A stretch of 17,600 nucleotides of DNA from a virus, in UHGV virus genome UHGV-0195027; one strand, written 5' to 3'. Shown here one piece after another: positions 7,245-9,346 of the stretch. Position 1 is the stretch's first letter. Each line of letters starts with the position of its first letter. The notes below the pieces were generated by a model that saw only the letters and a list, made by a program, of their open reading frames with translations, did no database searches and had not been told where the DNA came from. The translations under genes were made by a program, and so were the position numbers.

Positions 7245-7464
7245 GTTGTATGAACTCTGGTGTGAGCTTACATATCTATGGCACAGAGTAAAGCCTAATC
7301 TGGCAGTCCGCTCTGTGCCATTACCGGACATACTGAGCAGAAGGCTAAAAAGGACGCTTTCAGGACATATAGCAAGGGAGCAAGGATGAAAGAATTAACC
7401 CAGTATATTTAATGTTTCAATCATGATAGTTTCTGAATTAAAGGGGGCTATCCACCCCCTTTAA

Positions 7465-7743
7465 TTACTTGTTCCACTCAGTCAGAATTTGGTTACTAAC
7501 TTCATCTGAGAGATTGTACCAATAAGCTGAGTTATTGGTTGCGTCTACAACAATAAGCTTATCATCACTATCCATGACCGCCCTCACAATTTTGGCTGCA
7601 TCCTCGGCAGAGTAACTACAGTTAACATACCAGTTCGATTCAGTTGTTAAAGCCCAATTTCCTAAAGATTTAATTGCATCATACACAGCCGCATAATCTT
7701 TCGTTTTAATGAGGTCGTAAGTAATAAATAAATTATTAGCCAT
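7465..7743 (-). CDS. hypothetical 92-aa protein in prophage cargo locus; ferredoxin-like pattern with N-terminal ITYDL motif
   Basis: ATG 7741-7743 with GGGAGA 7 nt upstream. AT-rich, about 38% GC. Alternating hydrophobic-strand and amphipathic-helix segments. Stop is followed by hairpin ttaaaggggg/ccccctttaa (7441-7467). Confidence 0.6.
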   Translation of the reverse strand: MANNLFITYDLIKTKDYAAVYDAIKSLGNWALTTESNWYVNCSYSAEDAAKIVRAVMDSDDKLIVVDATNNSAYWYNLSDEVSNQILTEWNK

Positions 7744-7760
7744 AAATCATCTCCCAAAGG

Positions 7761-7789
7761 ACAAAGAAAAAAGCGCCTAGAAAGGCGCT
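7761..7789 (-). terminator. intrinsic terminator or attenuator between the DUF3606-like gene and the 92-aa gene
   Basis: Minus strand reads GAGCGCCT-TTCT-AGGCGCT followed by TTTTTTCTTTG: a 7-bp GC-rich stem, 4-nt loop and U-run, 7 nt after the DUF3606-like stop. Confidence 0.55.
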
Positions 7790-7795
7790 CATATA

Positions 7796-7975
7796 TTAAT
7801 GGTCTTTAAGCCATGCCTGTACTTTCTTAGCCGAATGACCTACAGCCTGTACGGCTTGAACAAGTTTGGCCTCGCTAACTCCAAACTTTTCAGCCCAATC
7901 ACGTCTCTCGTAATCCTGTTTGATACTTATTAAATCATTGTCAGGGGTACCGATTTTGGTCTTATCATCAGCCAT
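7796..7975 (-). CDS. DUF3606-like small protein (59 aa)
   Basis: Core DYERRDWAEKFGVSEAKLVQAVQAVGHSAKKVQAWL matches the DUF3606 pattern as recalled. Start placed at the internal Met (MADDKTK...) because it has AGGA 9 nt upstream; the listed start at 8014 has no ribosome-binding site. Confidence 0.6.
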   Translation of the reverse strand: MADDKTKIGTPDNDLISIKQDYERRDWAEKFGVSEAKLVQAVQAVGHSAKKVQAWLKDH

Positions 7976-8466
7976 TTTACTGATTCCTCGTGATACAGGC
8001 TTATACCTGCCCATTAGTTATATGGCTCCCGTGCTGCTTCGTAAACGTTCAATAATCAAACAATTGACACTGATCATAAAACCAGTTGGAGGATTTGACT
8101 CTAGCTTGGATATATGATGATGCCACCCTCTTTATATTGTTGTCGGTAACTCACAGACATTGAACTCATGCTGGTGAGTGAAAGGCTACATAAACGCCCA
8201 ACATTTAAACTGCCCTCAGCAGCGTTTGCGGAGCAATATACAGGCTTCGTATTCAATCCTTGCCCTACGAGAAACCCTAGCCGTTGCCTCGTTTTCAAGT
8301 GTCAGGAAGTTCTTTGTCAGACCTCATACAGTCTTGGGCTGGGTGAGGTGCATGGGGGAAGTAGAAGCCTTAACTGTTGAGGTAAATCGAACCATAAGTG
8401 TGCAATTTTTCAAGCCCGGCGCTATTTTAGTATTGAAAACAATTAGTACGCCCCCAAGGACAACTC

Positions 8467-9159
8467 ATGATCGAATTTATCGCAGAGCATATAAACACAG
8501 TAAGTACACTTATCTCCGCTTTGGCAGCATTGCTAACAGCAGTTGCTACATTTTTCTTGTGGAGAGTAACAAGGCTATTAGCAGACGAGACAAAAAGGAT
8601 GGTTGACGCATCAGTTCAACCTCATGTCGTTGTGACTCTTGAACCAAATTCTTGGGCTGCTTTTTATTTTGATATCAATATTGCTAATACCGGAAATGCC
8701 CCAGCCTATGATATTGAAGTCGGATTTAATCCCCCACTGGTTAATGCAGAACATAGAAAAAATAAAGGTATACCATTTAGCAAGGTTAGCGTATTGAAAA
8801 ACGGCCATTCCCTCAACAGCAGTCTTTGTAAGTATGACCAGATTAAAGATCAAGTTTATTCTGTTAGTATTAGCTGGTCTAAACAGCCGGGCTCAACTGA
8901 AAGAGAGCGGAATGAGTATTCTTATGATATGGCTTCTTTCGAGGGGGTTAGCTACTTAGGTGCAAGGAGTCCAATGACACAGATAGCTGAGCAGATGAAA
9001 AAGATTAGAGAAGACTGGAGGCCGATTTCCCAGGGAAGCAAAAAAATTAAAACAGACAACTATAATTCAAGTGACAGAGCAGAGGAACAACGAGCACGTG
9101 AAGAGTGGTATCAGGCCACTGTAAAGAAATGGGATAAAGAAAGGCAAAAAGATAACTAA
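8467..9159 (+). CDS. membrane-anchored hypothetical protein (single N-terminal TM helix plus about 190-aa soluble domain)
   Basis: ATG with AAGGA 8 nt upstream. Residues about 12-33 hydrophobic (VSTLISALAALLTAVATFFLW) followed by basic RVTRLL, suggesting a cytoplasmic C-terminal domain. Charged K/E/R-rich C-terminal tail. AT-rich. Transcribed divergently from the 7465-7975 gene pair. Confidence 0.6.
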   Translation: MIEFIAEHINTVSTLISALAALLTAVATFFLWRVTRLLADETKRMVDASVQPHVVVTLEPNSWAAFYFDINIANTGNAPAYDIEVGFNPPLVNAEHRKNKGIPFSKVSVLKNGHSLNSSLCKYDQIKDQVYSVSISWSKQPGSTERERNEYSYDMASFEGVSYLGARSPMTQIAEQMKKIREDWRPISQGSKKIKTDNYNSSDRAEEQRAREEWYQATVKKWDKERQKDN

Positions 9160-9294
9160 TACAATTGACCTGCTCCCCATAAATTAGCATACCACAATCT
9201 CAGGTTCCTCTTCGCTCAAAACAGGCAGTCAGATTTGATAGCGTTTTGGCTATGTAAATTGTCAGTCGGAAAATGAGTGTGTACAAATCAGGAC

Positions 9295-9322
9295 AGGCGG
9301 GCAGATTGCCCGCCTTTTCTTT
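9295..9322 (+). terminator. intrinsic terminator downstream of the membrane-protein gene
   Basis: AGGCGGGCA-GAT-TGCCCGCCT stem-loop followed by TTTTCTTT on the plus strand. Confidence 0.55.
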
Positions 9323-9325
9323 ATC

Positions 9326-9346
9326 TGTTGTTTCATCCACTGACCA
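9326..9346 (+). promoter_or_regulatory. candidate Ogr-dependent late promoter element upstream of FI (imperfect TGT-N12-ACA dyad)
   Basis: TGT at 9329-9331 and CCA at 9344-9346 separated by 12 nt, about 75-90 bp upstream of the FI start. One mismatch to the P2 late-promoter dyad as recalled. Confidence 0.25.

Follow-up and report, generated by a model that had tools for sequence, protein, structure and literature searches.

The question raised by the virus genome UHGV-0195027 is what kind of DNA occupies the gap between its tail-fiber assembly gene G and its tail sheath gene FI. The right two-thirds of the window (the whole stretch of 17,600 nucleotides analyzed here) corresponds to the late, tail-encoding part of a P2-like prophage. 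In the G–FI gap, the listing of open reading frames (ORFs) and the Pfam matches give three intact genes in two divergent units: a small DUF3606 protein and a 92-residue protein (ORF92) on the minus strand, and a 230-residue protein (ORF230) on the plus strand. The original prediction, made from the sequence before any database search, had described the same three genes and two units, and had taken them together as an undescribed defense or lysogenic-conversion module. The layout was confirmed, and the module was not: the locus contains two uncharacterized families that are widespread in mobile elements, not one coherent new system. The explanation that we prefer, at a probability of roughly 0.55, is that the locus is the Z/fun slot for morons (accessory phage genes) carrying the allele known from P2-EC53 and R18C, a patchwork of independently mobile genes that would be expressed in the lysogen and for which membrane and nuclease roles are proposed. 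This figure rests mostly on the anatomy of the locus and little on the specific functions.

The boundaries of the slot should be noted, since they define what belongs to the cargo. The left anchor, gene G (6717–7244, plus strand), matches Pfam Caudo_TAP (E 1.1e-35) and can be aligned with the G genes of P2, Wphi, and R18C. The right anchor, gene FI (9419–10609, plus strand), contains Phage_sheath_1, Phage_sheath_1C, and Gp18_domIII_N. In blastn alignments with the window, the homology of P2, Wphi, and 12474III ends at 7320–7329 and resumes at 9208–9212, with 87–89% identity in the left flank (7245–7329) and 89–95% identity in the right flank (9208–9418, plus strand). Between these flanks, the three phages carry fun(Z), orf44, and a SMEK-domain gene. 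The interval, lying between G and FI with conserved flanks and differing content, is the P2 Z/fun slot, one of two places for exchangeable accessory genes in P2-like prophages, several alleles of which are proven to be anti-phage. It was reported as the second defense-enriched P2 locus, holding three of the systems found in that study (Vassallo et al. 2022, PMC9519451), in agreement with the hotspot proposed originally. Since P2-like homology covers the left side to 7329 and the right side from 9208, the variable cargo is 7330–9207, shorter than the 7245–9330 first assigned to it. The cargo differs from fun(Z): only the flanks were aligned to the P2 G–FI interval by blastn, and tblastn of the three proteins gave no match there. 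Nor is it structural content conserved in all P2-like phages, as P2, Wphi, and 12474III carry other genes at this place. Rousset 2022 analyzed the other P2 hotspot (old/tin), and the Rst_3HP system of "three hypothetical proteins" in that study was rejected as a candidate, since it belongs to old/tin and PADLOC gave no match.

A terminator scan found four terminator-like hairpins, against 2.1 expected from shuffled sequences, and all of them lie at gene ends. A perfect 12-bp inverted repeat (AATTAAAGGGGG/CCCCCTTTAATT, 7436–7466) is terminator-like on either strand; it closes ORF92 and probably also ends the H–G late transcript. At the same position 3′ of ORF92 homologues, a hairpin of other sequence is found in an E. 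coli island copy and in one Klebsiella-group locus. The hairpin at 9295–9315 (plus strand; nine pairs, seven of them GC) is located 136 nucleotides past the ORF230 stop. Because it lies inside the conserved right flank, it is part of the conserved pre-pF phage frame and not the cargo's own. By alignment to P2, this flank also includes the Ogr-activated pF region upstream of FI, where the P2 annotation places the activator site and the F-operon start. Thus, the earlier view that each unit has its own terminator stands as far as hairpins at gene ends are concerned, whereas the right-hand one belongs to the phage and the minus-strand unit is interrupted internally at 7771–7790, as described later. 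The left flank also contains a hairpin with an 11-bp stem (ATGGCACAGAG...CTCTGTGCCAT, 7278–7321; −34.8 kcal/mol by RNAfold), which is the "left inverted repeat" of GenBank AJ512682. The left and right inverted repeats of that record are not mutually complementary (local alignment score 14; shuffled sequences average 14.3). The G+C fraction of the cargo is 0.409. The contrast with the flanking tail genes that had been described is clear on the right side (FI, 0.552; FII–D, 0.554) but not on the left (G, 0.453; H remnant, 0.433).

The same DNA has been deposited before. The whole interval is 99.5% identical to AJ512682, "Bacteriophage P2-EC53 proviral Z-region", and 99.9% identical to the viable phage R18C (MN016939, ORFs 23–25), to which window positions 6671–16178 align at 95.9%. 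R18C is intact, whereas the copy in this window is found in a remnant truncated by an insertion sequence (IS). ORF230 is ORF1 of AJ512682, labeled "putative lysogenic conversion protein" by the 2003/4 depositors; it is the only ORF annotated in that record, in which indels break DUF3606. In the R18C paper, the morons without known function include two short ORFs in the place of fun(Z), DUF3606 being one of the two (PMC6823313). The locus is therefore not undescribed, although no published work testing the function of the P2-EC53/R18C-type allele was found in a literature search. Among 5426 complete E. coli genomes, the allele is present at a coverage of at least 80% in 99, and the flanks only in a further ~930. 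P2-like prophages occur in roughly one fifth of these genomes (slots at 1315 places in 1029 genomes), and this allele fills ~7–10% of the slots. The locus is 99.5–100% identical across the P2-EC53 record, R18C, and the genome copies.

The DNA between the two units bears on how the cargo was assembled. In the spacer (8015–8466), positions 8104–8241 on the minus strand retain, as a relic, the 3′ end of a gene of the endonuclease VII family. The match is to the C-terminal 46 residues of a protein with an Endonuclease_7 domain that is encoded in an E. coli integrative island (61% amino acid identity, E 4e-16). In two IMG/VR contigs, this P2 cargo is present as a variant (ORF230, 92% identical) whose spacer between DUF3606 and ORF230 is ~310 bp longer, showing that the spacer itself is variable. 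A non-coding RNA or a long structured leader in these ~450 bp was considered and rejected, as the fold is no better than those of shuffled sequences (z 0.18) and part of the spacer is the gene relic. Rfam searches, with both E-value and gathering thresholds, gave nothing real in or around the cargo. The trio occurs together only in P2-like phages, and elsewhere the genes are found separately, as described below for each of them. Judging from the relic between the units and the separate distributions outside P2, the cargo is a mosaic built from island fragments, which within P2-like phages is inherited as one allele.

ORF230 (8467–9159, plus strand) is 99.6% identical, with one residue different, to WP_001572865.1, which RefSeq names DUF8453, and matches phrog_11802 over its full length (E 1e-146). 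No Pfam or NCBIfam match was obtained with library copies that contain no DUF8453 model. In the AlphaFold2 model (mean predicted local distance difference test score, pLDDT, 84), a long N-terminal helix (residues 2–49) is followed by a seven-strand sandwich (54–154), short helices, and a charged C-terminal helix (201–229). The membrane anchor proposed originally is found as a single hydrophobic transmembrane helix at residues ~12–32, continued by a conserved juxtamembrane helix to residue 49. The invariant residues of the family are concentrated in this helical part (A25, A27, T28, L31, W32, V34, T35, L38, A39, E41, T42, and R44), and an NTGN motif is also invariant. In 56 members of DUF8453, the N-terminal tails contain 18 Lys and Arg residues against 64 Asp and Glu residues, while the 15 residues after the transmembrane helix contain 204 and 116, respectively. 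By the positive-inside rule, this charge bias points to an N-out/C-in orientation with the bulk of ORF230 in the cytoplasm, so that its immunoglobulin (Ig)-like domain is probably cytoplasmic. Fold searches with the model retrieved only generic Ig-like domains or uncharacterized viral proteins, and neither these nor PADLOC revealed homology to a known exclusion protein. Searches of PDB chains with all three cargo proteins, as single sequences and as profiles, yielded chance matches only.

DUF8453 is far more widespread than the P2 slot. A profile search of a 50% identity library gave 1792 clusters at E 1e-3 or better. The best 150 of them are ~100–340 residues long (most 180–250) with no fusion partners. 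Homologues at 45–85% identity are found in Enterobacterales, Xanthomonas, Erythrobacter, and sphingomonads, and the family is conserved across classes at 45–50% identity. The genes in Xanthomonas, Erythrobacter, and Yokenella (46–59% identity) adjoin a DUF6538-type integrase, lie within a Mob_Pre/Prim-Pol element, and lie within a resolvase island, respectively. In one phage contig the gene is located 3′ of the tail-tip genes, and in another it adjoins a DUF7380/DUF4209 protein. All these contexts are mobile or variable, including integrative and mobilizable elements of alpha-, beta-, and gamma-proteobacteria, and neither ORF92 nor DUF3606 was found near DUF8453 in any non-P2 context examined. 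In ~465 of the 5426 E. coli genomes, a second DUF8453 copy is present as an IS-truncated remnant in the fec/IS30 region. It has 70% amino acid identity and lacks ~38 N-terminal residues, and with them the transmembrane helix, which were lost at the IS junction; its neighbors are an AbiJ-NTD4 gene, which it adjoins, a DUF4062 gene, and a recombinase. No such remnant is present in the fec/KpLE2 region of K-12 MG1655.

ORF92 (7465–7743, minus strand; phrog_1090, E 1.4e-24) can be placed more specifically. Its AlphaFold2 model (pLDDT 93.8) has the order β1-α1-β2-β3-α2-β4-β5-α3, and Tyr9, Asp10, Ser36, Asp58, Asp61, and Trp90 are invariant among 61 family sequences. The protein alone scores below the gathering threshold of Pfam CRISPR_Cas2 (PF09827; 12.7 versus 23.8 bits), sub-threshold Cas2 matches are seen in 29 of the 61 members, and PADLOC Cas2_II gives E 0.019. 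By tblastn, ORF92 is 34% identical to "Cas2" proteins of temperate phages of Staphylococcus, Enterococcus, Clostridium, and Mannheimia. The gp35 protein of Staphylococcus phage SN8 passes the Pfam Cas2 threshold (29.4 bits) and is matched by the ORF92 profile in hhalign with 98.5% probability (E 2.8e-15), the Tyr9-Asp10 pair aligning with its YDL. Since SN8 gp35, itself a Cas2 member, bridges the two, ORF92 is assigned to the Cas2 superfamily as a divergent protein that stands alone. The individual sequence lines are weak yet concordant, while the bridge through SN8 gp35 is solid.

In this register, Asp10 at the end of strand β1 would occupy the position of the Cas2 catalytic Asp. A close counterpart is BPSL1038 (PDB 7VXR), a solo Cas2/VapD-like dsDNA endonuclease with a D11(X20)SST active-site motif (PMC10491678). 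Cas2, BPSL1038, and ORF92 all have an Asp where strand 1 ends and a Ser in the β2–β3 turn. The α3 helix at the C-terminus of the ORF92 model may correspond to the additional C-terminal helix of BPSL1038, and both proteins are found without a CRISPR context. Unlike Cas2, ORF92 has no cas1 partner: no CRISPR array and no Rfam CRISPR family were found in the window, and cas1 is absent from 108 genes neighboring ORF92 homologues, which come from 26 species. Pfam families each occur at most twice among these neighbors; defense genes (Thoeris, CapP, and SoFic) are seen only sporadically near the homologues. In many species, ORF92-family genes are also found on chromosomes and in transposons. In phages SN8 and 587AP2, the Cas2-like gene is antisense within the early/immunity region. 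In Klebsiella and its relatives, the homologue is located at the integrase-proximal end of an element with a Phage_cap_E major capsid protein; few other phage genes are seen within an 8-kb view of this element, which may be a capsid-forming satellite.

The third gene encodes the DUF3606 protein (7796–7975, minus strand; the mechanical ORF extends to 8014), which matches PF12244 over the full domain (65.3 bits, gathering score 24.3; E 4.3e-18) and phrog_10779 (E 8e-39). Its start is most likely the ATG at 7975, giving 59 residues, judging from the homologues, all of which begin with MADDK, and from the RefSeq length of 59 residues; moreover, the upstream ATG overlaps the only promoter-like element that is conserved. 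Between DUF3606 and ORF92, the terminator scan placed a GC-rich hairpin and T-run on the minus strand (7771–7790), followed by GGGAG and the ATG of ORF92. Therefore, the minus-strand unit is interrupted. Stems of GCGCC/GGCGC with variable loops are found upstream of ORF92 homologues in eight enterobacterial loci, whatever the upstream gene is. The hairpin probably throttles read-through into ORF92, and its survival through changes of the leader gene suggests that ORF92 would be expressed by limited read-through. The GCGCC hairpin, the T-run, and the GGAG-ATG junction, constant across the swapped leader genes, resemble a cassette boundary or an attenuator.

The genes found in front of ORF92 homologues vary. 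The whole minus-strand unit of DUF3606, hairpin, and ORF92 (~7436–8086) recurs beside a tyrosine integrase in E. coli islands, where hairpin and spacing are preserved and nucleotide identity is ~86%; the homology of the island copy stops at window position 8086. In Klebsiella, Kosakonia, Citrobacter, and Pectobacterium, the small gene 5′ of the ORF92 homologue is a basic "MAK..TGQF.." ORF of 40–42 residues, and in Pantoea it encodes a DUF2188 protein. Most non-enterobacterial loci have no small upstream ORF. Conversely, DUF3606 homologues occur without ORF92 in Yersinia and Burkholderiales. A Yersinia gene of 234 codons upstream of DUF3606 was considered as a DUF8453 homologue and rejected. 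The swapping of the upstream gene, the occurrence of DUF3606 without ORF92, and the lack of a recurrent neighbor argue for ORF92 as a gene that stands alone rather than as part of a cognate toxin–antitoxin pair.

How the cargo would work in a lysogen can be outlined from these features. The conserved hairpin-bearing flanks insulate 7330–9207 from the late operons, as in the P2 Z/fun locus, which has the same slot, the same conserved flanks, and AT-rich foreign cargo; the cargo here differs in that it has no relationship to Fun(Z) or the PADLOC PD systems and consists of three small genes instead of one large gene. The genes would be transcribed from weak promoters of their own. ORF230 would reside in the inner membrane with the Ig-like domain and the charged tail in the cytoplasm, and might act there on incoming phage, either by keeping phage genomes out or as an abortive effector at the membrane; the invariant transmembrane/juxtamembrane helix would serve a specific helix–helix contact. 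Prophages encode single-pass inner-membrane superinfection-exclusion proteins, such as HK97 gp15, P22 SieA, and T4 Imm. ORF230 likewise would be a small prophage moron product that has a transcription unit to itself, carries a single membrane anchor, and lacks an enzymatic domain, but no sequence or fold match links it to these proteins, and DUF8453, with its 1792 clusters, is far more widespread than they are. ORF92 probably acts as a small dimeric nuclease like Cas2, VapD, and BPSL1038, with the Asp at the catalytic position retained. The hairpin at 7771–7790 would keep its level low, and the protein would act on behalf of the mobile element in its conflicts with others, with DUF3606 as an exchangeable small leader gene. 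Exclusion or defense by the membrane protein and a small-nuclease role for the Cas2-like protein are plausible from position and fold only.

Several observations weigh against this explanation. No cargo protein matches a validated defense or exclusion protein in PADLOC-DB v2.0.0, in which the best E-values are 0.019 (Cas2_II) and 0.027, with none for ORF230. The original statement that no protein was recognizable from a described defense system thus stands as to PADLOC but not as to the families, ORF92 being assignable to the Cas2 superfamily and ORF230 to DUF8453. A promoter scan of 7100–9500 found no sigma-70-like site against 5.2 expected from shuffled sequences; such depletion is unusual for AT-rich DNA with two divergent transcription units. 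Since no canonical site was found, expression in lysogens is assumed. A candidate promoter for the DUF3606/ORF92 unit (TTTACG, 17 nucleotides, TATAAC; 8017–8045, minus strand), which we infer from reading the sequence, is kept in the E. coli island copy but fails the stricter criteria of the scan. The D(X20)SST motif that has been put forward for BPSL1038 is missing from ORF92, in which Asp10 is followed, at a different spacing, by T33-T34-E35-S36-N37 with no SST. The host prophage in this window is a truncated remnant. Finally, the three genes are together in all 20 P2-like contigs, as those of a single system also would be.

A single three-gene defense system, for example, a membrane sensor, a Cas2-like effector, and a DUF3606 regulator, would account for this co-inheritance, for the presence of both units in 98–99 complete E. 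coli genomes, and for the divergent layout, which would permit co-regulation from the common spacer. However, the co-inherited copies are near-identical (92–100%), so that descent of one allele suffices, whereas outside P2 each gene is found without the other two, and the spacer is a gene relic without special structure; we consider a single system quite improbable. Pairing DUF3606 with ORF92 as a VapXD-like type II toxin–antitoxin, in which the hairpin sets the antitoxin excess and the pair stabilizes the prophage or aborts infection, is also unlikely, if somewhat easier to entertain. A small gene followed by a 92-residue Cas2/VapD-fold gene fits VapD-type toxins in order, size, and fold, BPSL1038 groups with VapD (PMC10491678), a terminator between the genes would cut the toxin dosage, and the pair is conserved in the E. 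coli islands. Nevertheless, ORF92 proteins at 70–78% identity stand behind three unrelated genes (DUF3606, the 40–42-residue ORF, and DUF2188), many homologues have no adjacent small ORF, and such free exchange, like the occurrence of DUF3606 without ORF92, is not expected of a cognate antitoxin.

The Cas2 fold and homology, the solo relatives in temperate phages of four bacterial genera, and the absence of cas1 or a CRISPR array nearby would also suit an anti-CRISPR decoy, that is, a phage Cas2 mimic that binds host Cas1 and blocks spacer acquisition. The family is, however, also borne by chromosomes and transposons in many species, and invariant Asp and Ser residues at the catalytic positions favor an enzyme over a passive mimic, which leaves the decoy as doubtful as the single system. 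The cargo might instead be neutral hitch-hiking DNA, or serve host physiology or virulence as in classical lysogenic conversion. The mosaic with its gene relic, the label under which ORF1 was deposited, the persistence of the IS-truncated DUF8453 pseudogene in ~465 genomes, and the defective state of the prophage here are consistent with this possibility. It nonetheless seems unlikely, if the least so of these four alternatives, since 99 genomes and a viable phage carry all three ORFs intact, the family-wide invariant residues and confident folds point to purifying selection, and the slot elsewhere carries validated defense genes. A bolder reading is that both families act where mobile elements are in conflict. 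DUF8453 would then be a new single-protein family of membrane-tethered exclusion or abortive infection (Abi) proteins, distributed over Proteobacteria by prophages and islands, and the ORF92 family a Cas1-free solo Cas2 lineage borne by mobile elements, either a hairpin-dosed nuclease effector or an adaptation-blocking decoy. This reading is tentative, and we would regard it as a minority possibility.

The independence of the units means that the genes should be considered singly rather than as a 2-kb block. Should DUF8453 prove active, the catalogue of defense and exclusion would gain a single-gene membrane family with a very wide distribution, and an active solo Cas2-like gene would bear on the role of Cas2/VapD-fold proteins outside CRISPR. 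If inactive, the locus would show that a hotspot position alone does not make a system.

The remainder of the window explains the state of the prophage. The left third is not of P2 origin: positions 1–6527 are 99.9% identical to plasmid NZ_CP010201.1. This part contains a FaeI-like K88/F4 fimbrial subunit, represented by its C-terminal portion (34–381), a GyrI-like gene (3228–3629, minus strand), an AraC-type helix-turn-helix (3675–3959, minus strand), and ISEc12 of the IS21 family (~3947–6527), with IstA at 4140–5681 and IstB at 5693–6442. Because ISEc12 has cut the tail-fiber gene H, the prophage is a truncated remnant from ~6528. On the other side, P2-like homology stops at ~16178, just past an ogr-like ORF (15740–16021), and is followed by a cation-efflux gene (FieF/YiiP-like, 16239–17159), placing the right junction of the prophage with the chromosome there.

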